A program made the translations under genes and the position numbers. Under the pieces are notes generated by a model that did not search any database, was not told where the DNA came from, and worked only from the letters and a program-made list of their open reading frames with translations. Positions 1-20,537 of a stretch of DNA of 64,000 nt are shown in pieces. How positions within the stretch are numbered: position 1 is the stretch's first letter; each line of letters opens with the position of its first letter. The DNA is from Trichoplax sp. H2 (taxonomy: Eukaryota): contig NOWV01000001.1 in the NCBI GenBank assembly GCA_003344405.1, forward strand, positions 124,001 through 188,000, read 5' to 3'.

Positions 1-1235
1 ATTAAGTTGAAGATATTAGACACGCAATGTACCGCAGCATTGTACAGTATTTATTTATTTCACTGTTAATAACTAATAGTTAACCATGGCTAGGGCTCTT
101 TACTATCAGAGTAAAAGAACTCTTTGTTGAAAGCGTGGTAAATAATCTTTGCAGTTACAAATGCAGTATCAATTTCGTTGCGCAAAGGCATACCACAAAG
201 ATGTACTACAGTATAGTAAATCTCTTTCCAAAGTAATTGCATGTCTATCGAAATAAACTCGCATAATTAATAAACACAGGGACTAAAAGAGGAGAGAGTG
301 TTATATTTATAAAGGTAAAAGAAAAAGCTAATTACAGATACGCCCGTATATTATACAAGACCATAGACTACTAGTCCATGACAACGTACACAGTACAGTT
401 AAAATAGCGAAATATATAAAATGCCATCGTACTGACAAAAATGGTATGATAGCAACTGCCTTGCCAATAAAACAGAAAACTATTGACGCCATTGATTGCT
501 AAGAATTTAATATTAATGTACGCGCATAGCGTTTTTTTTGTGCAGTGGCATTTCTACCTAAAGGTTCAATAAATGAAAAAATTCAGGAATATCATGCATA
601 ACCACTGTAGATTGACTGTGTTACGTTTTTTAACTCCTCAACATTCCAAACAGCTCAAATCTCCTTATGCAATAAAACTCACAGGGGCATTATAGTATGC
701 AGATAGGAATACCATCGACAAAGTGATACACTACTTGTAATACAATTTTGCTACTACCATATTATCACATGCTATCTATTACAGCCATTAATACCAAACG
801 TAGCAAACTGTAATAAACATTTTATTCTTTTTATTATTAGTCACTCTCTTACACATACACATACACATTGTATAAGCATAGGACTCTGGTGATATTTTTT
901 TAAGCTAAATTGTCGTGACTTTACAGTACAAGATAGTTAAACACTGCAAAATTTATACTAAATATTCAGTATGTCATGATGTGTTATGAATTGAGATATA
1001 CTAGTATCGCATAAGGTAACATTTTATAATCCACTTTCCCTAAATTTTCTATTAGCATTTGCGTATTTGTTTAATATTAGAAGTAGATCAATCAATTAAT
1101 ATGCACAAAGCTTCAGTTGTAAAATTAGTATACGAACAGCACGGATTATTGTCAGTTATTCAACTTTACAAGAGTAATTTATAAAAATAAATTATTTCTT
1201 TATACAAGCATTATTTTGTTAGCAATAAACTCATT

Positions 1236-3527
1236 CTAACGAATGACTTTCGCTAACTTAGAATATTCAACACTTTTAGTCTTTTTAACCTTTTCCTTTT
1301 TATCAACGGCAAAACATTTCCAAAATCGTAACGTCTCGTCTGCAGCTGCAGACGCTACAGTAGATCCATCTGGACTTAGAGTCATATATAAAACACGATC
1401 CGTGTGTCCATACAAGTCAGTGACGCGAACCATCGAAGGATACTTCCATATAGTTAGTTGATACTGAGAATACCCATGACCAGAAATTAACTCACGGTAC
1501 TCTTTCGACCATAAAATATTGCAAACCTAAGTATGTCATAAAAGTTATATATTATATGTTATAGTATGTATAAAAAAATCAACTAGTGAACAATAAATAA
1601 TCTGATCTGATCGGAATATGTGCTGGTAGTATGGTACGATCAATGGAATTTTTAGGTACAATGCATTCATAAAAGTATTAACAATGTTAAATACCCAACG
1701 AAAGACTAATATTGAGAACAATGGACAACTTATATAGCTCAATGTACCTGTGACGCAGTATCGATACTATTTAAACAACTTCCTGTAGATGCATTCCAAA
1801 GTTTAATACATCGATCAGCGGTACCGCCTCCAGTTGCCAATAAGTTATCGTGCCAAGGACACCAAGATACAGCCTAATCATGACAAGTAAAAACGTGGAC
1901 AGTAAATTAATGGAGATTGTTACAAGAGCCATGCAAAGATGATGATTAACATTCCGTACCTTAACGGCAGCTTGATGATCAGTTAACGAATGCAACATAG
2001 AATTATCTTGCCAAATCGTGACCACATTATCGTTACCACCACTAGCTAGGTATTTACCATTGGGAGACCATTTAAGACCACACACTTCTTGAACGTGATT
2101 CGATAATGTTGAAATATGATGATTTGCTACACGTACATCATGACAATGAATAGCACCACTACCAGAACCACTAGCCAGGATGTGCTCGTTCCAGCTAAGG
2201 GCTCCTATTCGTGCTGAATGACCAGACATTGATCGTAAACACTTTGATTGCCCCACATCCCAGATCTAGAAGAATTTAGTTTAGATATCAAAGATTAAAA
2301 ATTGGGTAAGCTATAACAGAATCATAACATATACTCAAGATATTTTCATCATATGATGATAGTTTAGAGGTAAGTCTATCGATAGCCAACGCTTTACTCC
2401 ATGAATTGCTCACCTGAACCGAATTTGTGCTGGTACCAACAGCTAAGTAATTTCCTTCTTTGATCCATGAAACAGCAGAGATGTAATCGTTCGTGCTTTC
2501 CATTTGCATTAATTGATGTATTGTTCCATCTCCAGCATTCCATATGTATAGCACATTTCGCAAGGCAATAGCGACATGGTTATTAACACTCCAATCTAGC
2601 AAATTTAAGTCTAAAACATACGTTGACAATTAGAGATATAAATTTAACTTTAGCTAATCTGTTTGATTGTAACGTACGACTAGTCCAAATCAATGTACTT
2701 TACTTTTAGTATAATCTAGCCAGGGATCATTCATTGCTTTATGAGTCATCTCGAATTGAACATACATATAAGTTAATAGGATACTTACAATAATCATCGA
2801 CCAGGTCAGGCGCGTCCAAAACTCTTTCAGGTGTACTGGGAATAAATCGACTGGATTTTTTACAGGATGAGCTAGTAACATTTTGCGTATACAGCACACG
2901 ATTATTATTTTGATGACCTACATCATGATGATAAAAAATGTTGTAAAATTTTCAAGGTCTTTGGGGGAATAGTGTTGTATGTTGAACTGCTGTAACACAG
3001 TTGTACAATAAAAATGAAATTTATATGGAATAAAAGACAATGTATCACTGAGTGATACTATAATTAGGGATCGTACCTTCTCTTGGTGGAGGAGCCTTAT
3101 TTTTACACGCGATAATTTTACTATCGAAATCGCAATTTAAGCTTTCTGATAGTAATTTTCTATACTCTGAGTTGCTAGGGGTAGTAGACTTACTACCATC
3201 ATCTTTGTTGGTTGAGTTCATTACCTTATGATGGCTGACGTCCATATTCATAGCGTCACGATTAGGAATAAATCGATCAGCACTAGGCGTTTTCGGCGTT
3301 TTGGATTTTCCAATTGTCGACTTACTATGAATGCCTGGCGTAATGGATGAAGGAGTTTTACCACTAGTACTCGTATTGGCCATGGCTTTGTTGGCATGTT
3401 TCTGTGGAGTAGAACCGGTCTTGGATTTTTCTCCAGTAGAGAAACAGGCGTCCCTCTTTCGTTTCCATCGTGGGGCCGGCCCTGATAATGGTTCATCTAA
3501 ATTGAAAATGCCGATATTGCTATTCAT
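1236..3527 (-). CDS. CDC20: Cell division cycle protein 20 (APC/C co-activator, WD40 repeat), 6 exons, ~499 aa
   Basis: Hand-spliced GT-AG exons 3077-3527, 2789-2917, 2414-2610, 1960-2265, 1748-1873, 1236-1526 sum to 1500 nt in one frame. Motifs: RWKRK box, C-box [27 protein letters not shown]40 repeats ([34 protein letters not shown]) and C-terminal IR tail. The start codon could lie in an unseen upstream exon. Confidence 0.97.
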
Positions 3528-3817
3528 TTCTTGCTTGCTAACCAGTATCTGATTGAAAAATCGTTCACAAAATAGCACTAGAAGTGATATAATCGCCTTG
3601 AAATGCTCTTAATATCCACCAATAGTTTCTTGATTTCAAGAAAACACCCTCGACACAGCACAGTTGCGAAATAATCGATTTAGACTGACGTTAGTACCAA
3701 GTTACTTCATTTAATGACTACACTACACTATGCTACTTACTACAAAATCATACACTACTGTACATCCGGACTGGAGGTAGAGGAGCATCAGTCACATGGT
3801 TAGTACGGGCAGTGATG

Positions 3818-3897
3818 ATTGGTTACAGGATCGATTGTATCAAGTTTGATTGGTTGAAAATGTTGGTACACGGAATTTAAAATCTGGACTTTTGCGC
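3818..3897 (-). promoter_or_regulatory. Putative cell-cycle promoter elements: two CCAAT boxes, CHR-like TTTAAA and E2F-like TTTTGCGC
   Basis: ATTGG (CCAAT on minus strand) at 3818-3822 and 3849-3853, 31 bp apart; TTTAAA at 3876-3881; TTTTGCGC at 3890-3897; all ~300 bp upstream of the CDC20 ATG. Confidence 0.45.
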
Positions 3898-4112
3898 TAT
3901 ACTGTACTATACACAGTGTACAGTACAATACTGTACAGTACAGTACTGTATGAAATACTGTAGGTCTACAGTACAGTACCTTACTGTACTGTACTGTAGG
4001 TCTACAGTACAGTACCGTACTGTACTGTAGATCGTGTACTGTACCCTCCTACAGTTCACGATCGAGAATTTTCCTTCTTGCTGTACTGTACACTGTACAC
4101 TGTACGGTATGC
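3897..4112. repeat. TACAG/CTGTA-rich quasi-palindromic low-complexity repeat between divergent CDC20 and GNAT genes
   Basis: Dense TACTGTA/TACAGTA units; includes a 36-bp direct duplication starting at 3956 and 3992 (TACTGTAGGTCTACAGTACAGTACC...), each with the palindrome TACTGTAG-GT-CTACAGTA. Confidence 0.85.
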
Positions 4113-4479
4113 CTACTCGATATTGTTCTATGTTGGCAATTCCTCGGCCTTGGTGGGGTGGAGTGAGGAGGTAAAAGCTCTATATAGAAACTTGTTTTTT
4201 ACCTCGTCATATTGCCATGTTGGAAAGAGAGAGAAAAACTTTTATGGTTATATATTAAAGTTAGGACTTTCAAGTGTTAGGAAAAGCGTAGTGTAGACTC
4301 TGCAGACACCCTACGGTATAACCTGCCGTCGAGGGTATCATAGAATCGTATAAAAGCCAGCAGTTTTGAATGCCAGTCTACTGTATTGCAAGGCAATTTT
4401 GCACACCCGACTACCTAGTCCCTACCTCGGGGCTTCTTGCTTAGAGAGCATTCGCCGGAAGCAGAAAGGTAAATAAAGG

Positions 4480-4965
4480 ATGGAAATTGTCAACGCGGTC
4501 ATACCTGATGATTTAGAGGAAATTCGTAGTTTATTCCGAGAATATGAAAATTTTCTTGAAGTGGACATTTGTTTTCAAGGATTTGAAGAAGAACTACAAA
4601 CTTTACCTGGGAAATATGCACAGCCTAAAGGAAGACTGCTCCTGGCAAGAAAGAACGACATTATTGCAGGATGTGTTGGACTGAGAGAATTGCAACCTGG
4701 TATCTGTGAAATGAAACGTCTCTATGTAAGACCAAAATTTCAAGGAAAAAACCTCGGAAGAAAATTAGTTAAAAGAATTATTCAAGAAGCGCAAAACATC
4801 GGTTACACACGGATGAGATTGGACTCTCTTGGGAAATTGAAAGCAGCCCTGTCGCTTTATAAATCATTGGGTTTTCGAGAAACCCGCCCTTATTACGACA
4901 ATCCCCTTTCCAATGTTGTCTACTTACAACTTGACTTAACTCAATTATCCAACTCAAGCGAATAA
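4480..4965 (+). CDS. GNAT-family N-acetyltransferase, intronless, bacterial-type, 161 aa
   Basis: Single uninterrupted ORF with GNAT motif A (EMKRLYVRPKFQGKNLGRKL) and motif B (AALSLYKSLGF), plus the FQGFEEELxxLPGKY and PYYDNP motifs typical of a widespread bacterial GNAT subfamily. AATAAA overlaps the stop codon. Confidence 0.93.
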   Translation: MEIVNAVIPDDLEEIRSLFREYENFLEVDICFQGFEEELQTLPGKYAQPKGRLLLARKNDIIAGCVGLRELQPGICEMKRLYVRPKFQGKNLGRKLVKRIIQEAQNIGYTRMRLDSLGKLKAALSLYKSLGFRETRPYYDNPLSNVVYLQLDLTQLSNSSE

Positions 4966-5959
4966 AATTCTCCAATCTTTATCATCGCAAATCATGGAAG
5001 AGCCAACTGCTTTCAATTGCACCAATTGCTACTGTATAATACTACAAATCAGCTTTAGAAAGTATCTCAAATGCTACCTATCAATTTACCCTTTATTTAT
5101 TATCTGTTGCTATTATACTGTACTGTACTATACAATATTCTGTATATGACCGAACTCGTCTATCATAAAATTTTATCGTCTGCCAATAAAATGAATCTGA
5201 TTATTTTTTTGGGGGAATTATAATAACTTGATTTCATTATATCGGTATATTCTGTCAACATCAGTGTTAATTCATTATTAAGATTTAATTTACATCTACT
5301 GTACTGTACTGGTACAAAGATGATAATAGATCAAAAAATTGTATCAAGTTGAATCAATCTTAGCCATTGGGTAAAGGAAGATGCAATGTAGCGATTGAAC
5401 CTCACGATTTCGTTGATATACGACCTACGAAACTTTCTCGCTTTCCTGTTGTGCAACATTATTATCATATTCTCTGTGCCGGTTGTTTTGCATGCGTTTA
5501 ATCCTATACAGAACTATCACCCATGTCTTGTACAGAGTTGACTAGACGAAAAGAGCTCTGTTTCTTATCCAATTACTCAGCAGTGGTAAAGAAACCAATA
5601 ATTAAAATAGCCTTTAAAAAACGTAGGATACATTCGTACTTCATTAATGAATTAATTCAATTTTTGAACCCACGCTTAACTGGTATGAAAGCTGAATCTC
5701 CAATGGTCGGTTCGCTCTATGCTTGGGTCTTGCAGACTTGAAGATTTAGGCATTACATGAGTCCATTTTCGGAGAAGATGCGCGTATATCGCAGTATACA
5801 GGAATCAATGTCTAGCATTGCGTACTGCCTTCTTGGAGTTCCTAGTCTCCTACTGCAATATACTACAAGTTGACCAGGATTAGACGACTAGGTCCTTGCA
5901 GACAAAGATTCAAGAATCAATTTCTCCATTTTACTGTCATTCCTGGTAGTGTATCTTGA

Positions 5960-6230
5960 ATAAACAACAAGCAACAGTCGCCTCTTTGGATCCAAATCGA
6001 CTTGGATGAAGTAAAAGAGATCCAAATCGACTTAGATGAAGCAAAAGAGCTTGTTGCAATGACACTCTAATCTGTACTATAGGACCTTGCCCTATCATAC
6101 TGTCTAGATACCTAAAAGAAACGGCAGACTTCGTCCCAACATGCATAGACAGGCTAAGCCATTCTTCCAGTTCTTCTATACTAGCTGTAAAATTGACAAC
6201 ACAGCAATCTTTAAATTGCTGTACTAGGAA
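5960..6230 (+). pseudogene. Possible decayed F5/8 type C (discoidin) domain fragment
   Basis: One frame reads NNKQQSPLWIQIDLDEVKE(IQIDLDEAKE)LVAMTL*, matching the discoidin W-I-Q-V-D-L motif; the flanks contain stops. Confidence 0.25.
5989..6048 (+). repeat. Tandem duplication 2 x 30 bp
   Basis: GATCCAAATCGACTT(G/A)GATGAAG(T/C)AAAAGA at 5989-6018 and 6019-6048, with 2 mismatches. Confidence 0.9.
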
Positions 6231-6418
6231 GCATACGGTAGATAGTATAACCACTCAAAACATAACACGCAATACAATCGATCGTATAGAGACTGGCGGA
6301 TAGAAACTGATTGACTTGCATCACATTCCTAGTGTTGGATGTGGATGGTTGGACCACCGGCAAATCCAACCCTTAGACACCCAAAATTCCAATGCTTTAC
6401 GCCTTCAATCGTTCGAAA

Positions 6419-8969
6419 ATGGATGTAAACAGCCTTTCTTTAAATCGTATATTGGTCTTTCTATCACTGGCATTAATCTTGTGTCTAGCGGCAGTGGAAT
6501 CTTCCTCTGGAACATGCACAGCGGACAGGAATGAATGTGATGCCAATTCCGGTAAGCAATTCAAATGGATAGCATTCAACCAACTACAGTAAATCATTCA
6601 AACTGCAGTCTCCCTACACACTAATATCAATGTTATTGGTACTAGATTAAATCTATAAATTTTACCATGGATAGAAAAGCCAATAATATGATACATTACA
6701 GTACCCTAACCACCATTCGGAGATGAATGATAGTTTAATCCCTTCAGTCACCTTGGTACCTTAACTACGATGTATATAGGGCGTAGCAACTTTTACTCTA
6801 TTCAAATAATTATAGAAAAACTTCGATTCAGAAACTTGATTTATTTTAGCTTTAGTTATAGCTGTTAAAATTGGCATAATAAGAAATTATCTTCCCGTTG
6901 TTATATCTTATGCTCCATTTTTTCTATATTGGACAGAATATGTATCTTGTTCAACTCATACACGTATACAATTAATTACACACACTCTGACACTGTGACT
7001 ACCACAATGCAGCAATTACTTTAATGAATGATTTATAATTCTATTTGACTTTTGAAGAACCTATGCGTAAGTATGGGCCTTACCTTCCAAAAGTGACTAT
7101 CATCTCGCCAACGTGTATTAAACGTCATCAATTTCATTCCAACTTAATTCGAATGTTTCAACATCAAAGATATGGTGGAGAGAAAGAGCTCCTAATTTAT
7201 GATGGTGCTTGCAAATCTAAATCATCAGATGATAAATCAGTCAAATCGAAAGTAGTACTAAAAGCAATGGAAGAGGATAGTAGAATCAGATATTATTATG
7301 AGCCCTTAAAAATCAAAAAGGGCGAGGATCATGTAAAACTTGGTAGCAAAAGGAATTGGATGATTGCTAATAGCACCGGAGAAATTATCGTCCATTTCGA
7401 CGATGACGATTACTACGGTCCTAATTATTTGCAACATATGATAACAACGATGATAATGCGTAAAGCCGTGATGATCAAGTTAATAGGTAATATGATAGAT
7501 CAAGATAACAAGTTCCAATTCTATTTTAACACAATATTCGGGTTATAACATGCTTGCTGTAGCACATTGATACATGATAAATTTAGTTCAACATGTTTTT
7601 ATAAACCTCCGATCTGAATGCTTCAATTGAAACAATTTTAGCCTGGTTTATTTATGGTGAGCAGTATCAAGATGGCAGACGTACAGAATCATTCGCCTAC
7701 TATGATTATACTGTCAGCCAATCGAAAGGCTGGGGCTGGAATCTTGTTTATAGAAAGGAATTATTAGGTAATTTAAATAAAATCGAAAGCTTAAGCATTC
7801 ATTCCTATGTAAGGTTCTACGTTCTTTAGATATTGGGATAGCTATAAGTATTTGATCAGCACAACGACTCGATTCCACAGTGATTATTCCATGTTACTAT
7901 TTGGTGTTAACGTGTTAACCCTGTAACATTATTACGTTAAGCCACCTGTCTTTGTATTCATGTTACTAATGTGAAATTTTGGTGAGCCTTTCATTCGAAA
8001 ATGACATTAAGTATCACTCTCTTTACAGATCAGGTGAAATTTAGAGACGCCGATTTCATGGAAGAAGATCACTTCGTCAATACAATCTTCACGAACGGAA
8101 ACAAGTAATCTACAACACTTGCTAATTATGCGTTACACTACTATTTGTTATATCGAATATTTAGTAGCGTATTTTTATGCGAGCTTTAAGATATCTTTTC
8201 CATTTCATAATAATAATAACAATCATGTAACTTTAGAAACTTAAATATTGATAATTTTTACGGTAAATGTTCGCTTTGACTTATAGCTTAGATTTGTCCT
8301 GGATTAACATTATCCAACACATGATAGTAATTGTCAGCCATTTTTAATATTCATCTAGAGTACACTTTATGCAAGATAAAAATTTCTTAGCCATGAAGGT
8401 AAGCAATGATTTAGTTACCCAATTTTTATTATCCAATCTGAAAATAGCTACCTGAATATTTACGTAGGAAAAGTATCAGTTAAACTTTGCGCGATAGGAA
8501 AATTATCATTCAGTTTAATTTAATGCTTTATTTCATAACACTAATACTTTTAGATGGCGACACAAATTTACACGTTGGTCTCTTCATTTGATAATGTATA
8601 ATTTTGTAATGATAGTTTGTTACAGGATCGCTTGTAAGATCTACTGGGATGCCGTTATGCAAGACGTCAGGTAGCGACTATAAAATTTGTGATCGTTATG
8701 AATTACCAAGATGGCTCGCGGAAAAAAGTAAGTTGAAATTGACTTGTCAATAGTGTAAGATACTACACTAAATAAACCTTAACCATGTTATAACGAGCAT
8801 GAGTATTAACTTTAAACCGTCTCTATTCCTTTAAAATAGGATACTTTTAGTTGTATTAAGGCTAATGTAATAGCTTCAATCCACAAATTAAATCATGCCA
8901 TTTAAATTAATTCATTTAGGCTTTGGATCACAAATTAAGGACTGGATTAAAATGGTCAACACAAGATAG
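6419..8969 (+). CDS. GT-A fold (GT2-like) glycosyltransferase with N-terminal signal peptide/signal anchor
   Basis: Exons 6419-6551 (hydrophobic ILVFLSLALILCLAAV), 7058-7486 (PKVTIISPT...LGSKRNWMIANSTGEIIVHFDDDDYYGPNYL), 7642-7767, 8029-8104 (FMEED), 8359-8398, then ~8626-8728 and 8920-8969 (stop TAG, AATAAA ~8987). The junction between 8398 and ~8626 is unresolved. Confidence 0.85.
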
Positions 8970-9401
8970 CCAGTTTTATTTTTTATAATAAAATTTTGCA
9001 AGCCAATCTACTTATCATACTACCTTAGGACAAGACTTTACTGGTCGTCTGTATGAATATAGATTAGCTATATTACATAGTTAAATGAAAAGATATTTCA
9101 TTGTAAATATATACTGTAATACAAAAGTGTCATTAAAATTGAAGTATTTTTCTAATAAGAGGTTGACTTATCTTATCCGTAGCTTTCCTATATTAGTAAC
9201 AGGCAGTTTTGTTGCAATAGGACTGTCATGATCAAAATCAGAGTGATTATTTGCCATAGTAATTTTTATTTGACTGGCGGGTTAACAAGTATGACCTAGA
9301 CCAGTACCAATAGATATCCCATACTTAGTATTCAATGTAATACGAGTACAGCCCTACTAACCGTAAGTAAGAGGTACTGAAGACCAGCAATCACTACTTT
9401 T

Positions 9402-9445
9402 AGCATAGACTACTAGAAGAAGACCTGCTTCTAATAGTCCATGCT
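9402..9445. mobile_element. Tiny palindromic MITE-like element with CATRGACTA termini
   Basis: AGCATAGACTACTAGAAG-aagacctg-CTTCTAATAGTCCATGCT: 18-bp arms with 2 mismatches. Related sequences at 362-380, ~12525-12553 and ~18195-18290. Confidence 0.45.
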
Positions 9446-10813
9446 TTTAACTAGTTAGGTCTATAATCATACACAAAAGATCTTCAAGCGCTATGTACAG
9501 CATTTCAATTTATCTCTTCGAGATATCCTTCATAGTGGAGATATTCAAATGAGAACGTCCTAGAAATAATCGATCAGAAGAACATTAGCGAAATTTTACG
9601 TAAATCTTATTCTCAATCGTATCTTCAATGCTGTTATTGAGATCAAATATTTGTCGGTGTACAGCATTAGAATAGGGTTTTTATTACCCAACTAGATTCC
9701 TCAGAACTAGTAAATTAACCCTAGTTAAGATAGGTAGCTCCAGAATTAGCAAATTTTCTTAATGATCCGGCAAATGTTAAGATAATCGTAGAAATTAACT
9801 AATACGTGAGAATTCTATTATTATGGAATACAAATTTGCCATTAATATTTAACTTTCAGCTTATATATGTACGTGTATAAGCAAATGTAATGCAATTAAG
9901 CTATACGAATTGTCATGTAGTATACACGAAAATGCAGGGAAGTAGACTTAATTCAAAGTGATACTTTAGTGATTGCCAAAATCAAAACCTATAAGTTAGA
10001 ATTAATTTCTTTGCACGATCTTTTTTCATTTATGGTTTGTTCCATACTACTGTACTGTATACATCCAGTTATAAACCCCACGTCCGATATTGCAAGACTA
10101 TCACGATTGAAATGGTTCTCGTTTCACAAAATACTGTTGTCTGCGTCGTTGCTAAACTAATGATTGTTGCTTAATGAATCTTTTTGCTCTATTTCTGATA
10201 AGGTACATCTCTGTGGCGATGATGTCGTCATAGTCGATATTGCTATGTGTAATTGAGAAAAAAAAATGATTGAAATGAATCTTTTAACAAGGATATTCAT
10301 ATTTACGCTACTTGATAGCTTAAAGTCTTGTGAGACAATTGTGAAAGTAATCCTGTCCTTGCTATTTTATGATGTGAGTTTACGTAATACTATAGCAAGC
10401 AAAGATATTTCCTAAAGTTAATCATTTAACGTGCTAACATACGGATGCATTGAATACCCTTTCACAAAGATGTTACTATCTACGTGGTTAGCTTACGATG
10501 CTTAGTATAATCCTTGAAATACCCATATTTTCGTTATTTATTAGCTATCATACCTTCATATTTAAGTTTACAAGACCATGCTAATTGGAATGCTTATTCT
10601 TTCGCAGAGATACTCTGTCTATTAAATGATTGACATGCAATTCTAGAAAGAGAACTATTTCAGTTACCTTCTTGACAGATTGTTATTTTACACTATTACT
10701 ATATCGAACAGCGATGACCGCATAGTTGATGTTATCATACTAATTACTTTAGAAATCAATGCCTTCCATAAATACTAATGGCCCAGACTACACAATCATT
10801 AGCGTAAAGGCTC

Positions 10814-10887
10814 TGGCGAAATCATGGAAAATGGTCATGATTTGCCATTTAACTTGATATGGCTTAGCGCCATATCAAGTTCAAATG
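10814..10887. other. Two abutting inverted repeats (hairpins)
   Basis: TGGC(G)AAATCATG...CATGATTTGCCA (10814-10847) is followed immediately by the perfect 13-bp stem AACTTGATATGGC-ttagc-GCCATATCAAGTT (10851-10881). Confidence 0.8.
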
Positions 10888-11142
10888 TTCTCTCAAATTG
10901 ATGTTATATTAGTACTCAAAAGCAACTGAAAATAATCTTTAACAATGGAAATTCTGACATTGCCTGATTTATCGACATCATTTTGTTTGTTTTATACGAT
11001 ACCAGTTGTCTAGAAAAAGAAATGGCTAAAATATCAGGAAAAATGGAAAAATGATGATTTAAAATCTATTTGTTTCTTTCGCATCACCGTGGAAATACCA
11101 CAGTACTCGATTCCTCCGTCTTCTTTGGGCTGACCTTACTTG

Positions 11143-11935
11143 ATATTAGATCTAGTCAGAATATTTTTTCACTCCATTCCAGCCCTCGAAAAGAATTGGA
11201 GTGATTGTCCTTTTATGAAAATGCTGTTGTCTGCGTCGTTATTTATAATAATTTCTCGGAAAAGCGCACATTTTACCATTTATAGGCTTTGAAAAAAAAT
11301 TGATTTAGTCGCAAAAAATAAGCAACAGACTGCTATTCTCATACCGTAACATGCTAATCGAGAATTTAGCTAGAATAAAATGCAATAATAATTATGATAT
11401 CGAATTAGATCTAGTCCAGAGTATTTTTTTCTTTCCATTGCAGCCCTCGAAAAGAATTAAAATAATTATCCCTATAAGAAGATGCTGCCGTCTGCGTGAT
11501 TATTTATAGTAACATATCGACAGAATTACGGGAAAGCCTATATTTTACCATTTTTAGACTTTGAAAAATGCTTATTTACTGTTATTGGCTGAAATAAGCC
11601 ACAGACTGCTGTTCTTATAACGTAACATGCTAATCAAGGATTTAGCTCAGAATAAAATAAAAATAGCAATGATACTGTATTATATCTAGTTAGAGTATTC
11701 TTTTTACCCCATTACTACAGCACTCGAAAAGAATTGAAATGATTTGTCTTTTCATGAAGATACTGCCTTCTGTGTCGTTATTTACAGTAATTTCTTAAGA
11801 TAATTACGGGAAAGCCAATACTTTGTTATTTTTAGGCTTTGAAAAAGGTTTATTTAGTCACAAAGAAATAAACAACAGACTGCTATTCTCATACCGTAAC
11901 ATGTTAATCAAGGATTTAGCTCAAAATAGAATAAT
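11143..11935. repeat. Tandem repeat, ~3 copies of a ~260-280 bp unit
   Basis: Anchor AGC(C/A)CTCGAAAAGAATT at 11181, 11442 and 11719, with shared CAGACTGCT..TCT.ATA.CGTAACATG blocks; a partial copy lies near 10105-10155. Confidence 0.9.
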
Positions 11936-12109
11936 ATTGACAATGATAGAATCAAAAGTTGTAAAAAGAATAATGATTAACTTCGATTGTTATAGGGTAG
12001 GTGTTATAAACTTAAAAAAAGGATAAAAAAAATTTTTCAACGAGCTGCCGGATTATGCAATAGTTTAAAGTGCTTGTACACTGTATACTAAAGACCAGCC
12101 TTTTATTTG

Positions 12110-12450
12110 TGACTTCTTTCAATTAAAATCAGATGAACAGTAAATATCTAATGGCACGGCCAATGTCGAAATCCATATACAAAGAATAACAGTCTTGATA
12201 AATGAGCCACTTCGCCATTCTATCTGGTTGAAAATATCGTCTACTAGCATATCCACAGTAAATATCGAACAGCATGTTTGCTACTATGAAGAGAAATGTT
12301 ACCGCATAACATACGCGTAGATGTATATTCTGAATTTACTCCCTTTGTCTACCTGAAAGACATATTTGCCATAGCATTTATTGCTTGTAGCTCTAGTAAA
12401 ACAAGCATAAAATAAGTTATGCTGATTCTCCTCCTCATTCGGAAAATTTC
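12110..12450 (-). pseudogene. Probable rhodopsin-class GPCR relic (ICL1/TM2 to TM4)
   Basis: Frameshifted minus-strand segments read RMRRRISITYFMLVLL, RVCYAVTFLFIVA, TCCSIFTVDMLV, GAC-GA-TAT (DRY with a 1-nt deletion) and IKTVILCIWISTLAVPL. Multiple stops. Confidence 0.4.
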
Positions 12451-13119
12451 ATCTCTATCCAAGACACTATCGTAGGTATCTACAACCTGCTTTGAAGTAA
12501 GCGTAAATAGACATTATTCTATGCTTTAGTAGGTCTCTTCCTTACTAGTCTATTTTCTGAAATGATCAAGCTTTCCGTTAATGAAAAATCCGTCCAAATA
12601 CCTCGTTATCAACACAGCAAGATTTTAGCTTAGAGACATAATCATTGAATCACTGGAGATCTTTGTCACAAGAGCAATTTGCAGTGTTAAATCGTTGGTA
12701 TAGCCTATACGTGAGCGCTATAGTGACTAAAATTGCAGAAGGAAGTAATAGTTATCTAGATCTTCTTTTGGAAATGATATAAGTACTGCAGAATATTTTT
12801 AGTTTTAATGGCTACAAACATGGGTGAAAATAAATCAATTTAAAATCAATAGAGTACAGACCTGATTCATATTCACCTTGAAATTATTTCTGATGAATAA
12901 GTCATTAGAATAGATGCTGAACTCTTTGCAAGTTTGTAAATATTCCAAGGTTCATTTTATCTCGCATAACATTTATGAGGACAGCGGTCAATGTTAACCA
13001 TTCTGTAACCGCATCAGTGGTTACTATTATGGCTAGAGAGAGTAACCCGTCTGGATTAGTAAATCACAACTTAATATCGTCTGTACTATCGCTTTCTTTA
13101 CTATTTAAATTCTCGAAGA

Positions 13120-14620
13120 CCGTAGAAACGAGGTCAGAATCATTGAAATAGTTCCAGTTGTATCCTTAAATTACTTAAAAAAATGACTCTCAATGCTATT
13201 TCGAATTGCATTTAATTGGCACATGGTAAACCAGATTAGATTTCTTGCTCTAATCGCATCCTATTCAGTTAATACGAAAAATATCCTCAGAGTACTATAA
13301 TAATTGCAAATCGTATTTGCCTTATACAGAAATGGATGAGGTTACTATCATTGAGCAACCACAATTGCATCCTTAAAATTACTTTAAAAATATTTTACAC
13401 GGAATCCTATTCAACTCGCATTTATCTTGCCATAAAAATAAACGAGATTACAAATCTTTCTTCCACTCTATCCCTTTAAGGTTAGTAATTTCTTTTAAAA
13501 ATTTATACAGAATCTTATTTTATATCGTAATTATCTTTACATAAAAATAAACGAGACTGTTATCATTGAAACGGTTCTATTTGTGTCCTTAACGACTAGT
13601 AACTACTTTCAAAAATGATACAGAATCCTATTTCAAGTTCTATTCCTCTCAGCAGGAAAAATAAACGAGATTACATTCATTAAAACAACTTCATTTATGT
13701 CCTTAATGGTTAGTAACTACTTTCAATATTGGTACAGAATCCTATTTCAAGCTCTGTTTCTCTTGGCACGAAAATAAACTAGATTACATTCATTGGAACG
13801 GTTCCATTTGTATCCTTAACAGCTAGTTGCTACTTTTAAAAATGATATAGAATCCAATTTCAAGTTATACGAGTATTTCTCTTGGCACGAAAAATAAACG
13901 AGACTACAATCATTGAAATGGCTCTATTTGAGCCCTTAATTAACAGTCAACAACTATCGTACTTTAAAAAAGATGATACAGAACTTTATTTCAAAGTTAT
14001 ATTTATCTTGGTGTAAAATAAACGAGGTTTCAATTTTTATTCTAACGGTGCCCTTTATAGCCTAAAATTCCTTAAAAATGCCACAGAATCCTACTTCAAG
14101 TTATATTTATCTTGGTGTAAAAATAAACGAGGCTTCAATTTTTATTCCAATCGTATCCCTGGTAGTCTAGAATTCCTCGAAAATGGCATAGAATCCTATT
14201 TCAAGTTCTATTTGCTCTGCTACAAAAATAAAGGAGATTATAAATTCTTCCTTCACTAGTATCCTTTACCGGTCATTCACTTCTAAAAAATTATTATCAG
14301 AATCTCCTTTCTTTAAGTAATTATAGCCCTTACGTAAAATAAACCAGATTATAATCATTGAAACGGCTCCATTTGTGCCTTTAACAGCTAATAACTACCG
14401 TAGCTTAAAAAGATACAAAAGTCTATTTCAAATTACATTTGTCTTGGCATAAATAAATAAATAAACGAGGTTATAATCTCTACTCTAATTTTATTCTTTT
14501 ATAGCTCATAACTCCAGCAAAAGAAAATTGTAAAGCCTTATTTTAAGTTGTATTAGCCTTAGCACAGAAATTAATAGGATTACAACCCCTGAAATGGTTG
14601 CAACTGTATCCATTACTATC
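13120..14620. repeat. Diverged tandem satellite, ~13 copies of a ~105-130 bp unit
   Basis: Recurrent CAGAATCCTATTTCAAG...AAAATAAACGAGATTA...CATTGAAACGG..C.ATTTGT..CCTTAA at ~13401, 13509, 13621, 13735, 13849, 13980, 14084, 14190, 14299, 14420 and 14535. Confidence 0.92.
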
Positions 14621-14789
14621 AAGAATCCATTTATTATAGGATCATATCTTAATAGATGGATGGTATTACAATAATATTCACATTAGCCCTATTCATGTGC
14701 TCGTCGGAGACAAAAAAAACAGAAATTATATTCTATCAATGGAGCTGATAGATTGATTCAATTGCTTTAGATTGAAAATAAATTCATCG

Positions 14790-15150
14790 CATAGTCCATT
14801 CTATCCTATTTTGCCAACATGTTCGATATTGCCATTGATCCAATGAATAGATCACGTAACCCATTTTATTCCTATTTTGCCAACACTACATTTGTAATAT
14901 CTCTGTTAATACAAATGAATTAGGTTGTACCTATCACCCATTCTAGGTGCCTATTTTGATATCCTATCTGAAATCTCGATTTAAATCGGCTAGAAATGGG
15001 TATAAAATTCGAATTTACAAGGCTATGAAATATCTTTTTATGATATGAAATGAATCAATCCTAGGACTTATTCTACCTTACCAGCCCATCCAATATCACC
15101 ATTGATACCAATGAACGATTACATAACCCCATTTGGTCCTTATTTAGCTA
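14790..15150. repeat. Short diverged tandem repeats (CCATT..ATCCTATTTTGCCAACA...CCATTGAT.CAATGAA)
   Basis: CCTATTTTGCCAACA at ~14805 and ~14871, with further degenerate copies to ~15140. Confidence 0.6.
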
Positions 15151-15858
15151 TGTTATTGAATAACTTCATTGATGCGTGACAGATAGAAATTAACAATCAT
15201 ATTATTTATTTCAACCAAGTTGAACAGTAGAAAAGTACTAGCAATGAAACTTTCAAAACAGTAGAAATCATCAAAAATCCATGGCTTAACTCATTTTCAT
15301 TTTCAGGTAAAAGACAATCTTATTCATAATCAAATAAAGATGTTATCCCCATTTATTGGGTAAGAAAAGTAGAATGTGAATAATACCAAATGTGAATGAA
15401 ATTAAATCAAATTGAACAATACATCAGCAGCAGATTTAGTGAATAGGAATCATCAGCAAACAAAACCTACTACCGGGTGTTGGCAAATAAACGTGTATAA
15501 AAAGGTTTCTACTAAATAGTGGAAAGAACCGATCACGTGCATGATAGGAGAAGATCAAGTTTAGATATTGGACTAAAGAAGATCAATTTACATAGGGAAT
15601 AACATTGGAAATATTATGGGTTAAATGGGAAGTAATCAATTGAACCCAGCTGTTACACTAGCTGTATATTCAAGAGTACAAATTATAGAGAAATTTTTAA
15701 TGCTATTTATATCATAATAAACACCTCGCATCGCCAATTGATTCATGTCAAAAAGTTGCATCAAGGCTGGAAAGGCAGAGTGAGAATAAGGTTATCATCA
15801 AGAAAGAAATATTATCTCAAGACGGCTAAGAAAAAGAACAAAATTAAAATCTCTCACC

Positions 15859-16155
15859 ATGTCTAAGAAAGAATTACAAAAATCTCAAGCGCAAGTCAAA
15901 CAAGTGATGGATATTATGCAAAAAAATGTGGATAAAGCTATCGAAAGAGAAGAGAAAATTAGTGTATTAAATGAAAGAGCCGATAGCCTTTATAGCCATG
16001 CATCTGAATTTGAAACCAATGCCGCTCAACTTAAAAATAAGTACTGGTGGAAAAATTTCAAAATGTGGATCATTTTGATCGTTACCATTATCTTAATCGT
16101 AGTGGCTATCGTAGTTTGGATTGTACTTTCACATGTTAAAAAATCCAAACCATGA
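15859..16155 (+). CDS. Synaptobrevin/VAMP-type R-SNARE (brevin, no longin domain), intronless, 98 aa
   Basis: R-SNARE motif QVKQVMDIMQKNVDKAIEREEKISVLNERADSL...ASEFETNAAQLKNKYWWKN with the zero-layer Arg, followed by a C-terminal TM helix. Confidence 0.96.
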   Translation: MSKKELQKSQAQVKQVMDIMQKNVDKAIEREEKISVLNERADSLYSHASEFETNAAQLKNKYWWKNFKMWIILIVTIILIVVAIVVWIVLSHVKKSKP

Positions 16156-17010
16156 CACTCGTCGACAACACCATCCAATATAACCACGTAAGAAGAGTTC
16201 AGTCCACCACTCATCTATCATATTATATTACAAAAATTGGACCATTTCGAGCGTCTAATGAAGCGTTGTAATTCTGCCATCCGTTCGTAAAATTATATTA
16301 CCCTGTTAGAGAATTGTTGTTGGATTTTAGCATTTATAAACAGAAATTTACTTTAGGCAATATCTATCGATAGCGATATATTAACAAAGGTAAAATCAGT
16401 GCTCAAAAACACCATTTGCATACATCACCTTACATTCAATCTTATACCGTAGTGGTCTACAACTATTGGATAGAACAATGATTGGTGTTTAGTTTCATTA
16501 GATCAAATGATTTTCAATACTCTATATGCACAACCTTAATGATAGGCGTCGACTAGTTCATATTATAATAACCTATGAAAAATTACTTGATATTCATTTA
16601 CTAAGGCTACTTTCTATAAAACTGCAGTATATTTACTTGTCAATTTTATCCAAACTTAAATACGAATGAATCTATCACATCTAGGCTATCTTAGTACAGT
16701 AGTCCTTGCTAGAAGGTAAATACTGTAAAATATCTCTAATCGCAATTGCTGGATTCATTAAAATAATATATTCAAATTCTATTGTAAAGAAATCAACCTA
16801 AAGAAATAACTCCCTAAGCTAGAAGCTTGAATCATGCCGAAATATATTAAAATCAACTACTATAGAAATATTTGATCAAAGTTAAAATGGTGTAAAAAAT
16901 GAAAGATTCAGTTATAAAAATTGTTTATTTCTTAATTTTCAATGCCTGAAATGATATCAACTTTTCCAAAATGTGTTACAATATCATTTAACAATTCTTG
17001 ACATATTATT

Positions 17011-20000
17011 TTATCGTGTTAACTGTAACTGACTTAGACACGAACGTTTCCTATTTGTCATATGAATACTAATAATATCGGCATATAACGGTCTTCTTAA
17101 TAAACTATAAGCAGTCGTTAGCAAGTGCAGAGCAAAATTATTGAATTCTTCACCCCTACAAAACAAATCAATTCCAAGCTCAAGTCCCATACCATAATCG
17201 CATTCATCGTTTGCAAATTGTACGTAAGTGATGAGTTCTTCTAACGGTTCTAGAAATTTCAGTCTTTGAGCCGTGTTCTTGCATTTTTCAATATTAGTTA
17301 ATATTTTACCAAGGGCTGCATTAGTAACATTCAGGGGCCTATATCCAATATCTAATTTCTTATCTACTGGAACCACAATACCAAGCGTATGAAATGTATT
17401 AGCGACAACATATTTCTTCCTTTCCTTTACGCTTTTACTATTAACGCTTAAGTCGAAATGATATCTTGCAGCCCACTCTTGCAATTTGCTGGCTAGTTCA
17501 TTTATTTCTTTCTTTGCCGCTTTACGATTCAGTTGATTGTCAATATAGGTTCTGTCATAAGCAAAATGATATTGTAATTATAGTATCAATATAACTTTAA
17601 AAGATATTACGACATCCTACATCTGATTTATTGATTGGATAACTCAAGCTTATTTCTATAGTCAATATTTACAGACGAGAATAGGTAGCATTTGCAAATT
17701 AAGTGAAATTAAAAATTTCCACATCACGTCCAAATATTCATCTGATAAACTACTCACTTGACTGCAGCGAAAAGGTTAGTACCCATACATTTAAGTTCAC
17801 ACGAATTGCCTCCAGTATTGCTTGCGACTAAATCTGGCAATTTATCTGGATCATCCCTGAAGTTATACGTTAAAAAAGCATACGCAGTTTAGAATAAATC
17901 ATGAAGTGGTTACATGATACATTCGTTATACTTTCAACAATGATAATCGTTTGTTCCCCAGCAACTTTAAAGCTATACTAATTGAGAATGATTTATTCGG
18001 AAGTAAAAGTTAATAATATACTGTACAGTTAACTGCCCCACAATGCATGGTTTAATGATAAGAGACGATATTACATTAAATTTCTTGAAATTTAAAATTC
18101 GAGAATTAACGTCCAATGCAGTTAAAGTTATAGTAGACATAACTATCATATAGCATTGGCTTCGAGCCGGCCGCTTACTCGATTTATCAACAGACAGGTC
18201 TACCGACTGGTCTTACTAGTCTCTGGTAAAAGGGCAAGACGTACCTACATAATAACTTAGACTAGTAAGAGGTCACAAGTTCCATGGCTACTTAATGAAT
18301 CAATGATCATTTCCTGGGTAATACAACCACCGTAAAACAACCCTACTTAGGCTACAAACTCTTTGCTTCAATATCATAACATATTTATCAGAATTTCATA
18401 TGTAAAATAGTAATCGAACCTTTTTCAGGTCTAACCAGCACTTTATTTCTAAATACATATCATGTAAGCTTACTATCCTACCACTACTTTTTGGTGTGTC
18501 CTAATTAACCCAAAAGGCAAATATGCAATTCATAATATATATAGGTAATTGTTCACAGGTATGCTACCACCATTATTACTACTGTACTATCTAAATGAGC
18601 GAGTACAGGCTACCTACTACATCTTCCACAATACTACAGCATCGCGACAGGCACTAATTACTAATTTATATAAATTTCAAATATACTTAAGCATGCAAGC
18701 CAAAATTGTCATGTAAGAGTAAAACAGCTCCTAAAGCTGAGCCTATAATATAAGGGGTCAGTTTATTTCTCGCCGGTTAAAACATTTGAATCAAGATCTA
18801 ATAATGTAATCAAAGCATGCACATATCAAATAAAATCGATAGCACACAGTACCTATAATAGCCAAAATGATACGAACTTTCATCTTCTCTGGCTAGCAAA
18901 GTCATCATTTCGGGGGGATCGTAATAAAATCTCCAGTGTAAATAATAGGAAGTTATCGATGATTCATCTCTATCATCAAATTGACCAGCTAAAACGTCGA
19001 AAGCTCCAACCAGTTTTAACTGTAGGGTATCCATTAAAGCATCTATAAAATCATTTATTTAACGGAGCAAAACAAGCAAAGTATGCTAAGAATCGCATAT
19101 CATAGAGAAAGTATTGTAAGAAGTACGCTTTCTCACGGTCATATCAGCAATGTAAAGCGCTATAACTTTTGAGAAGGTAAAAGTCAAGGTATAGCTGTAC
19201 CTGATGGAGCTGTAGGATTTACTTCTTGGCAAAATTCATAGAACCTAAAGAAATCGTCTGGCATAGTAACACCGAATTTTGCTTTCATGAATTCAATCCG
19301 TTTGCTGTAATCGATCTCAGAATCATGCTCCTTGCTTTTTTTATTAGACGGCACACTGTCCTGGAATTCTTCTTCAGCATTTTTTCTTTTCCCTGATCAG
19401 AATTCAATTAAGTTTAGCTCTGATTGTATCGAACATATAATTTGGTATGACAGCTTGGAATTTACAGTCGATATAATCAGAGAAATACTATTATCAACAG
19501 TCATCCAAATGAGAATTACTTTTGTCATGTATAGTAACGATCGTTGCTGTTCATATCGTATGGTACATTTATGAGTGTGCAATAGATATAATCTACAGTT
19601 ATATACCGAATAAGAATTGCTTTTATCTTATATCATAATAATAACACAGTATAGTCATTGCTGTTCATATCCTACAATTACGAGTTTGCAGCAAGTGTAA
19701 TTCGATAAATGGATCTTGTACAATCACCGAACGAGAGCTATCTTTATCATGCAGCTTAAAATCTGCATTATGTAATCGTTGGTGCAATTTCGAATTCTAG
19801 AGAAGGTAGATAATTTATTACAATACCCAACTTATTGCACTTATATTCTAGCAAATATTACACGATTTAAAAATTAATCATGCCTTCACGAATACATAAT
19901 TTGGGTAGAGGTGAAATAACGTTAGGAGAATACTTTGTAAATAGTACCTGAAGATTCCACATTCGATGCCGTTGGCTGTTTCTAGAAAGTCATAATAACA

Positions 20001-20537
20001 TAGATATGTTTAAAAGTTATTAGTCATCATCATATGGCTCTATCAAAATGGAGCAACATCCAATCTTATGAGGATTTAAACCGCGCACAGCAATAATAAT
20101 ATTTCCTTGCAAACATGGAAACGATTGACGTGGCTGTTCTGATACCCCTACTTGGGAAATCTCCTCGATTCTGGTTAACTTCCAGAAATAATAAGGTATT
20201 AAACTATACCAGGTGATCTCATAATGTATTAAGCTACTGCAAAGCGGACAGAATTGAACCATGGAATTACCCAGTCAATTTAATTGAATAACTAGAACAT
20301 GCCTTGATTAATTATCATTATGTGAAAGGCATTATATCGTAATTCTAGCAATTGAAACTATTTCAACTTGTGCAATCTTGCAGCTACGATCTCACCAAGA
20401 TCTCTACAATATCCAGAAACTATTTTCAAATTAAAATTACAGCAGTGCTTCTACTCTATCGATTTCAAATTCGTAAGACAAAATGGCTACACTGCAATGT
20501 GTTTACTATTTACCTTTACAAGCTTTCTTGGCGCCAT
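17011..20537 (-). CDS. HPF1: Histone PARylation factor 1 (C4orf27 homolog), 6 exons, ~359 aa
   Basis: Exons 20514-20537 (MAPRKLVK), 19948-19981, 19201-19392, 18853-19042, 17758-17856, 17011-17551 sum to 1080 nt in frame. Motifs MPDDFFRFYEFC, LHWRFYYDPPE, HFGYYRDDP, TFHTLGIVVPVD and the catalytic FANDECDYGMG. The first two small exons are less certain. Confidence 0.95.

Follow-up and report, generated by a model that had tools for sequence, protein, structure and literature searches.

The placozoan Trichoplax sp. H2 carries a single-exon gene of bacterial type, encoding a GNAT-family N-acetyltransferase, next to the gene for CDC20. The gene lies in the 64,000-nucleotide stretch of contig NOWV01000001.1 (positions 124,001 to 188,000) that was analyzed here; this whole stretch is referred to as the window, and positions are counted from its first letter. 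The GNAT gene is intact, integrated in the host genome, single-copy in sequencing depth, transcribed, and bacterial in type. The evidence gives good support to a horizontal transfer from bacteria and a later duplication, and a single transfer that preceded the duplication is the simplest history. We consider it probable that a bacterial GNAT gene was transferred to the nuclear genome of the Trichoplax lineage, became integrated and duplicated, and now gives rise to an unspliced RNA. The finding very probably repeats that of transfer candidates reported from T. adhaerens by Driscoll et al. (2013; Genome Biol Evol 5:621, PMC3641634). What is new here is the parity of sequencing depth with a host gene, the host-like base composition at third codon positions (GC3), the unspliced transcript, the relationship of two paralogs, and the contrast in conservation between them.

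In the scenario that we propose, a bacterial GNAT-family gene would have entered the nuclear genome of the Trichoplax lineage and would have inserted beside CDC20 in ordinary chromosomal DNA, where it would have acquired the base composition of the host. Through a duplication, a further copy with greater divergence would have arisen on a different scaffold, and the gene would now be expressed as an unspliced, single-exon mRNA. A preliminary description of the window had already proposed a horizontally acquired GNAT acetyltransferase of bacterial type, and this proposal is borne out by the bacterial relatives of the protein, its nesting in maximum-likelihood (ML) trees, the depth parity, and the host-like GC3.

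The GNAT coding sequence spans positions 4480–4965 of the forward strand as one exon of 161 codons plus the terminator, beginning with an ATG at 4480 and ending with a TAA at 4963–4965. The assignment is based on the list of open reading frames (ORFs), Pfam, an AlphaFold2 model, Foldseek, and conserved alignment columns. The span of 4460–4965 given before has the correct end, whereas its start includes 20 nt of leader upstream of the ATG. The stop-to-stop frame begins at 4477, directly behind an in-frame TAA on the forward strand (4474–4476) immediately 5' of the ATG, so that any upstream extension of the protein would require splicing. Across the six frames of the window, just 13 stop-to-stop frames reach 110 residues or more; this rarity of long frames, together with the strong match to the GNAT domain, indicates that the 161-residue ORF is not a product of chance. 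The translation contains all six motifs quoted in the preliminary description: LFREY (residues 18–22), FQGFEEELQTLPGKY (32–46), GCVGLR (64–69), CEMKRLYV (76–83), MRLDS (112–116), and YYDNP (138–142). In an alignment of 24 family sequences, these motifs occupy columns that are invariant or nearly so. The protein is recorded in NCBI nr, UniRef, and EukProt. Searches of the window by tblastn with the GNAT protein and with its paralog returned the GNAT ORF as the sole match, and thus no second copy in the window.

The GNAT protein matches Pfam family PF00583 (Acetyltransf_1) over residues 33–132 with 60.5 bits against a cut-off of 20.7 (E = 2.5e-16), and it likewise exceeds the Pfam cut-offs of PF13508 and PF13673. 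An AlphaFold2 model calculated from the 24-sequence family alignment has a mean predicted local distance difference test score of 92.2 and a predicted template modelling (TM) score of 0.87. The top Foldseek matches of the model in the PDB are GNAT acetyltransferases throughout, with TM scores of 0.79 to entries 3d8p and 2q7b, and the model thus predicts that the protein has the GNAT α/β fold. The best PDB matches by sequence are the uncharacterised YsnE (1yx0) and 3lod (E = 1.2e-13).

The ORF belongs to a bacterial GNAT subfamily with the signature LFREY/CFQGF/CEMKRLYV/YYxNPL, the columns of which are kept. Of the 47 columns with a conservation of 90% or more among 160 bacterial and metagenomic rows, the window protein retains 42, and its five changes are each conservative (L>I, A>G, R>Q, T>S, and E>Q). 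The bacterial rows themselves keep a median of 46 of the 47 columns, with a minimum of 38. All 24 rows of the family alignment have Glu77 and Tyr127. The pyrophosphate-binding loop of GNAT motif A follows the pattern Q/R-x-x-G-x-G/A. In the window protein the loop reads Q88-G-K-N91-L-G93, in which the end positions of the motif are kept and the middle glycine is changed to asparagine. The same position is occupied by lysine or glutamate in the paralog and in the three closest sequences (P0002, P0004, and P0005).

Transcription of the GNAT gene was assessed from contigs of four sequencing runs, three of DNA type (X1, X3, and X6) and one of RNA (X18), aligned to window positions 1000–9000. Run X18 is a random-primed RNA-seq library, the contigs of which yield neither strand, true transcript ends, nor expression level, and regions not covered in it serve only as a contrast within the library, not as a sign of silence. 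Record 12 of this run is a 781-nt contig that aligns over its whole length (781/781, with four differences) to positions 4280–5060, colinear with the genome, without splicing or loose ends. It spans the entire GNAT ORF and defines the minimum transcribed region, the strand of which is not assigned. Record 9 of the same run is a spliced CDC20 contig (1000–1524/1746–1872/1959–2267) from which the introns are removed, and the X18 depth is zero in the CDC20 intron bins 2335–2868 and in the intergenic bins 5539–6339. Because the 781-nt contig extends over the ORF in a library that contains spliced CDC20 RNA and has empty introns, we conclude that the GNAT gene is transcribed from the host genome as an unspliced RNA, with a leader of at least about 200 nt and a trailer of at least 95 nt. 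The preliminary description of a single-exon ORF among intron-rich animal genes therefore holds, as the 161-residue frame is intact, the RNA contig is unspliced, and both CDC20 and the downstream glycosyltransferase gene are multi-exon.

The window gene has a paralog in the same animals. In T. adhaerens, the window GNAT gene is located on a contig of 5,881,857 bp, and the second copy, TRIADDRAFT_7695 (a partial model of 130 residues, 68% identical), on one of 536,744 bp. The two are paralogs, not orthologues, because both are present in T. adhaerens assemblies, on different scaffolds. The full-length counterpart of TRIADDRAFT_7695 in Trichoplax sp. H2 is RDD41615.1 (P0123), a 156-residue protein named 'Acetyltransferase'. 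The second copy is present in two Trichoplax assemblies, on a large scaffold other than that of the window gene. The paralog keeps 37 of the 47 conserved columns, fewer than any of the 160 bacterial rows, and its changes include the non-conservative F>C, Q>K, R>H, G>H, Y>N, and P>S. Its motifs are altered accordingly, from CFQGFEEEL to CCKGFQQVL, from CEMKRLYV to CEMKHLYV, and from YYxNPL to NEDNSL. To judge from these substitutions, the paralog may be either gaining a new specificity or decaying. Neither the second copy nor the earlier report of Trichoplax GNATs had been noticed in the preliminary description.

The divergence of the paralog, which falls below the bacterial minimum of 38 columns through non-conservative changes, would also be expected if the transferred gene were a transcribed relic without a selected function, its short ORF still open because the transfer or the duplication was too recent to have broken it. 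The DNA run X3, which carries another organism label, differs from the window in the GNAT ORF at two listed sites, 4755 (C>T, synonymous at Leu92) and 4769 (T>C, Val97Ala); that one of the two is non-synonymous fits a relic as well, and the function of the GNAT protein is only putative. Against this stand the conservative changes and the 42 retained columns of the window copy, despite a protein divergence of 31–32% from every listed relative; the 161-codon frame, which is intact in a genome of 32% GC where long frames are rare; and the transcript. We therefore consider it unlikely that the window gene is such a relic.

The relatives of the GNAT protein are bacterial. A word-indexed search of 5.8 billion proteins gave 8000 scored candidates, 7998 of which are relatives, and the best 120 were listed. 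Trichoplax is the sole named eukaryote among these 120 matches, the remaining named ones being bacterial metagenome-assembled genomes, and it is again the sole named eukaryote in a second, overlapping list of 120 best matches seeded with P0002, in which P0002 has no close neighbour with a name. No homologue from another named eukaryote is thus found among the 120 listed matches, most of which lack taxon names; eukaryotic genomes were not searched directly. With HMMER, 1.84 billion representatives were scanned exhaustively, which gave 469 matches below 1e-30, and the nearest ESM-Atlas clusters are 92–100% Bacteria. In a scan of GTDB with one genome per species, 577 of 580 candidate stretches encode GNAT relatives. 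The best 80 of them are 46–59% identical to the window protein and spread across many phyla, with groups including Desulfobacterales, Competibacteraceae, Pyrinomonadaceae and other Acidobacteriota, Bacteroidota, Planctomycetota, and Myxococcota. The top identity in JGI metagenomes is 60%. The closest sequences of all are P0002, P0004, and P0005, which are 64–69% identical to the window protein and come from contigs of 566–1052 bp in NCBI, ENA, and Logan. The FYMINK/GARP ratios of these three sequences (1.14–1.19) are close to that of the window protein (1.21), compared with a bacterial median of 0.685 and bacterial values of up to 1.93, and their source is AT-rich.

In ML phylogenies, the Trichoplax pair is placed inside a bacterial polytomy. 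The more careful tree, calculated under LG+C20+F+G4, contains 65 rows hand-picked from the best matches and the named loci and excludes translated rows of 200 residues or more. The window protein pairs with the second Trichoplax sp. H2 copy at a support of 99/92, the pair joins P0002, P0004, and P0005 at 98/84, and the bacterial sequences in which these five are embedded form an unresolved comb. The same pairing is recovered in a quick tree of 111 rows (Shimodaira–Hasegawa-like approximate likelihood ratio test, 92). The Trichoplax copies nest within bacterial sequences, next to sister sequences without a taxon name.

It has to be considered whether the gene could instead be an ancient eukaryotic or holozoan one that descended vertically and was lost nearly everywhere else, with no transfer into placozoans. 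Most of the database matches carry no taxon name, and P0002, P0004, and P0005, with their AT-rich sources and FYMINK/GARP ratios near that of the window protein, could be eukaryotic. We regard vertical descent as very improbable, because Trichoplax is the only named eukaryote in both lists of best matches, the nearest Atlas clusters are almost purely or purely bacterial, the gene is intronless in an intron-rich neighbourhood, and its clade is embedded in bacterial sequences of many phyla.

A transfer could also have originated from a resident endosymbiont of the animal, of a rickettsial or Margulisbacteria type, and a symbiont had been suggested as a possible donor in the preliminary description. 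Placozoans do harbour intracellular bacteria, the closest sequences are AT-rich, and Driscoll et al. speculate that the GNATs might once have belonged to the accessory genome of the symbiont (PMC3641634). The same paper, in the passages available, calls the GNATs not of rickettsial origin; no Rickettsiales or Margulisbacteria title occurs among the best 80 GTDB-species matches, and the GNAT gene has the DNA depth of single-copy host genes. The suggestion of a symbiont donor is not supported, and we think it very improbable.

The GNAT gene is physically integrated in the host chromosome and is not contaminant DNA. The DNA contig that contains it (4081–5608) has the same depth as the CDC20 contig in all three DNA runs, with 57.2 and 57.9 in X1, 33.5 and 32.5 in X3, and 85.2 and 76.4 in X6, respectively, so that the gene is single-copy in depth. 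The stretch is present in 20 of the 24 listed runs, which come from seven studies and bear two organism labels. Within the 1.5-kb contig, the ORF has an upstream flank of 400 bp and a downstream flank of 640 bp, both of non-coding, AT-rich and host-like DNA that carries a host repeat of the ACTGTAC type and no second bacterial ORF; the GC content of the downstream flank is 0.325, and that of the window 0.323. The GC3 of the GNAT ORF is 0.309 and that of the CDC20 exons 0.316–0.364, whereas the 160 bacterial and metagenomic homologues have a median of 0.66 and a range of 0.26–0.98. The short-read contigs stop at a tandem repeat based on TGTAC/ACTGTAC, located between CDC20 and the GNAT gene at 3917–4105 (Tandem Repeats Finder arrays 3917–4029 and 4085–4105; no strand). 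The repeat consists of a 36-bp unit in 2.8 copies and a 7-bp unit in three copies, and it recurs at 5297–5311 and in scattered positions; the window contains 58 occurrences of the ACTGTAC-type 7-mer and its complement. The summed contig depth at the repeat is 7140–24,403 in the three DNA-type runs, compared with about 33–85 in the flanks, which shows that the repeat is genome-wide and of very high copy number. This is the reason for the gap in the short-read DNA contigs between 3903 and 4081; those of the three runs also break at 5608–5674. That bacterial DNA was misjoined to a host scaffold is hardly credible, since these breaks at 3903–4081 and 5608–5674, which leave the linkage unproven by the short reads, are outweighed by the depth match with CDC20 in three runs, the host-like flanks with their repeat, the host-like GC3, the recurrence of the stretch across runs and studies, and the presence of the second copy on a different large scaffold of two Trichoplax assemblies.

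We predict that the GNAT gene encodes a cytosolic enzyme that uses acetyl-CoA to N-acetylate a small amine or a compound resembling an amino acid, an assignment in which our confidence is low beyond the chemistry. A cytosolic location is suggested because the protein lacks a signal peptide or a presequence-like N-terminus. Catalysis would use the conserved pair of Glu77 and Tyr127 together with the CoA-binding loop Q88-x-x-N-x-G93. A detoxifying or metabolite-repair role would be a guess. All 17 listed NCBIfam equivalog families score below their curated cut-offs for this protein; the best, TIGR01575 (rimI), reaches 37 bits against 86.4, and others 31.9 against 170 and 26.7 against 265. Membership in the RimI, ArsN1, AAC(6'), PaiA, or ArgA type is ruled out, as the NCBIfam scores are far under the cut-offs.

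The genomic context of the bacterial homologues is diverse. No conserved operon is apparent across 160 loci, the commonest neighbour family being present in only 17 of them. The neighbour families comprise a Mrp/ParA-type ATPase, Fe-S assembly proteins, ThyX, MotB, and an M28 peptidase, which represent lineage-specific housekeeping synteny. Ten homologues are fused to other domains, namely a second GNAT, shikimate dehydrogenase, NUDIX, 4Fe-4S, DUF4184, FMN-binding, and HAD partners, and neither these ten nor the Atlas clusters offer a consistent fusion partner that points to the substrate. Many members of the bacterial subfamily, P0124, P0125, P0129, and others among them, are tandem GNAT-GNAT proteins or otherwise fused, and Atlas adds fusions with a beta-carbonic anhydrase.

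Several points weigh against the reading of the gene as a transferred and functional bacterial enzyme. The tree, with its polytomous backbone, does not place the donor. The sister sequences P0002, P0004, and P0005 lack a taxon; if they are eukaryotic, the history would be more complex, and even a bacterial origin of the three would not name the donor lineage. The low GC3 could mirror an AT-rich donor rather than amelioration, since the GC3 of homologues extends down to 0.26. The linkage of CDC20 and the GNAT gene rests on the deposited assembly, as the short-read contigs do not bridge 3903–4081. The RNA evidence consists of a single contig with a depth of 7.4, from a random-primed library that is silent on strand, ends, and polyadenylation. 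An asparagine replaces the middle glycine of the canonical CoA-binding motif. The enzymatic role is only predicted, with no NCBIfam equivalog, no conserved operon, and inconsistent fusion partners.

Transfer of GNAT genes to Trichoplax has been described before. Driscoll et al. mined bacterial-like coding sequences from the T. adhaerens assembly and, in the passages available, report 12 of them on large eukaryote-like scaffolds as likely transfers, including two GCN5-related N-acetyltransferases, GNAT_1 and GNAT_2 (PMC3641634). These two are described there as 'not of rickettsial origin', grouping with various bacteria. Ten of the 12 candidates are said to have no introns; GNAT_1 and GNAT_2 would be among them, because the candidates named as having predicted introns are dapF, BPL_N_1, and BPL_N_2 (PMC3641634). 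GNAT_1 and GNAT_2 thus share with the genes studied here, as far as they are described, the animal lineage, the absence of introns, the number of two copies, and a bacterial, non-rickettsial phylogeny, and from this matching description we infer that they correspond one-to-one to the window ORF and TRIADDRAFT_7695. A word search of PMC3641634 gave no evidence from expressed sequence tags or transcripts that concerns the GNATs. None of the locus tags TRIADDRAFT_7695, TRIADDRAFT_58019, and RDD41615 was found in the literature searched, and beyond the paper of Driscoll et al. the searches on gene transfer in Trichoplax and placozoans returned nothing relevant to the GNAT gene; Eitel 2018, in the passages available, mentions the removal of bacterial contigs and not this gene.

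The window gene resembles a widespread bacterial subfamily of stand-alone GNATs (LFREY...CFQGFxxEL...CEMKRLYV...YYxNPL), to which it is 50–60% identical over the full length. The bacterial members have the same length as the window protein, about 155–165 residues, and are annotated just as 'GNAT family N-acetyltransferase' or 'putative acetyltransferase'. No characterised member of the LFREY/CEMKRLYV subfamily was found; the sequence and fold matches in the PDB are uncharacterised or generic GNATs. In contrast to the bacterial genes, the window gene is located in an animal chromosome, has the composition of its host, gives rise to a eukaryote-type transcript, and encodes asparagine in place of the middle glycine of the R-x-x-G-x-G loop. 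Characterised GNATs (RimI, SpeG/PaiA/SSAT, ArsN1, and AAC(6')) have the fold and the acetyl-CoA-binding core in common with the window protein and match it weakly (TIGR01575, 37 bits; NF053587, 26.4 bits; PDB 2bei and 1tiq, E of 1e-6 to 1e-7). Other transfers from bacteria to animals, listed in PMC3641634, include those of bdelloid rotifers, ldcA and amiD of aphids, and those of Hydra. As described there, they too are cases of a lone bacterial enzyme gene among host genes that is expressed from the host genome; unlike them, the window GNAT gene has gained no intron and no targeting signal, nor has it a demonstrated connection with a symbiosis or a pathway of the host.

Upstream of the GNAT gene, CDC20 lies in the opposite orientation (1236–3527, reverse strand, for the part in view), identified from exon ORFs, Pfam, PDB matches, and the spliced RNA contig. 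The ATG of CDC20 is at 3527, head-to-head with that of the GNAT gene at a distance of 953 bp, in agreement with the divergent arrangement and the approximately 950 bp noted before. Exon 1 of CDC20 encodes a DRFIPNR C-box. The WD40 exon matches the Pfam family WD40_CDC20-Fz (E = 4.8e-36) and, in the PDB, human CDC20 (E about 1e-42) ahead of CDH1/FZR1 (1e-24 to 1e-27).

The RNA contigs end at 3684 on the CDC20 side and at 4280 on the GNAT side, so that the transcribed regions are separated by no more than about 600 bp; these ends are not transcript starts. Two CCAAT boxes on the CDC20 side (3818–3853, reverse strand; ATTGG on the forward strand at 3818 and 3849) were found by a motif scan, and their spacing of 31 bp is one that we take to be typical of an NF-Y-dependent G2/M promoter. 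The repeat of about 190 bp and separate TATA-like words lie between this CCAAT pair and the GNAT gene. One TATA-like word (4249–4255, forward strand) is located 31 nt 5' of the left end of the RNA contig and a second one at 4349–4355 (forward strand), and both are weak hints from the motif scan. The preliminary description had suggested that the gene captured a bidirectional promoter of CDC20 and might therefore be coupled to the cell cycle; the divergent arrangement is real, but the GNAT side has TATA-like words of its own, and the shared promoter and the coupling are not supported beyond a hypothesis. If the GNAT transcript starts at or before 4280, a single upstream ATG (4370) opens a frame of about 24 codons (4370–4444, forward strand) that ends before the main ATG.

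The preliminary description had noted the word AAAGGT shortly before the ATG, as a residual Shine-Dalgarno sequence or a splice donor (AAAG|GT). The word is present at 4466–4471 on the forward strand and appears to be neither. AAGG occurs 5–13 nt 5' of 75 of the 2572 ATGs in the window (2.9%), so that a Shine-Dalgarno relic is rejected as indistinguishable from chance, and the RNA contig at 4280–5060 is colinear through the site, which was therefore not used as a donor in that transcript. At the other end of the gene, the motif scan shows an AATAAA overlapping the stop codon (4961–4966, forward strand), a hint set against the continuation of the RNA contig to 5060; the next AATAAA is at 5185.

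Downstream of the GNAT gene lies a multi-exon gene for a family-2 glycosyltransferase (6419–8966, forward strand), recognized by Pfam PF00535 and seven tblastn segments and matching T. adhaerens TRIADDRAFT_58019, which is located on a contig of 5,881,857 bp. This glycosyltransferase has few database relatives, with two matches in one protein search, and its nearest Atlas clusters are GT2 proteins of bacteria and giant viruses (Nucleocytoviricota). From its sequence relatives, it may be a second, older, intron-bearing gene of foreign origin. Further animal exons in the window encode synaptobrevin, HPF1, and LDLR/EGF (LDL-receptor) domains.

We speculate, as a rather doubtful extension of the transfer reading, that P0002, P0004, and P0005 are orthologues in other placozoan genera. 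The GNAT protein would then be a phylum-wide domesticated enzyme that was duplicated in Trichoplax, shares an NF-Y-type promoter region with CDC20, and is made mainly in proliferating cells. If this were true, the gene would have been domesticated anciently, with one copy keeping the active-site signature and the other neofunctionalising or decaying, and the conserved copy could acetylate a growth-linked amine, for example, a polyamine. The Trichoplax GNAT gene is a clean, well-documented control case, being intact, host-like in composition, transcribed, and duplicated, and it repeats a published class of candidates. Verified functional bacterial genes in early-branching animals are few, and they bear on the uptake of foreign genes into the germline; the GNAT case also bears on how placozoans handle the bacteria and algae that they eat or harbour.

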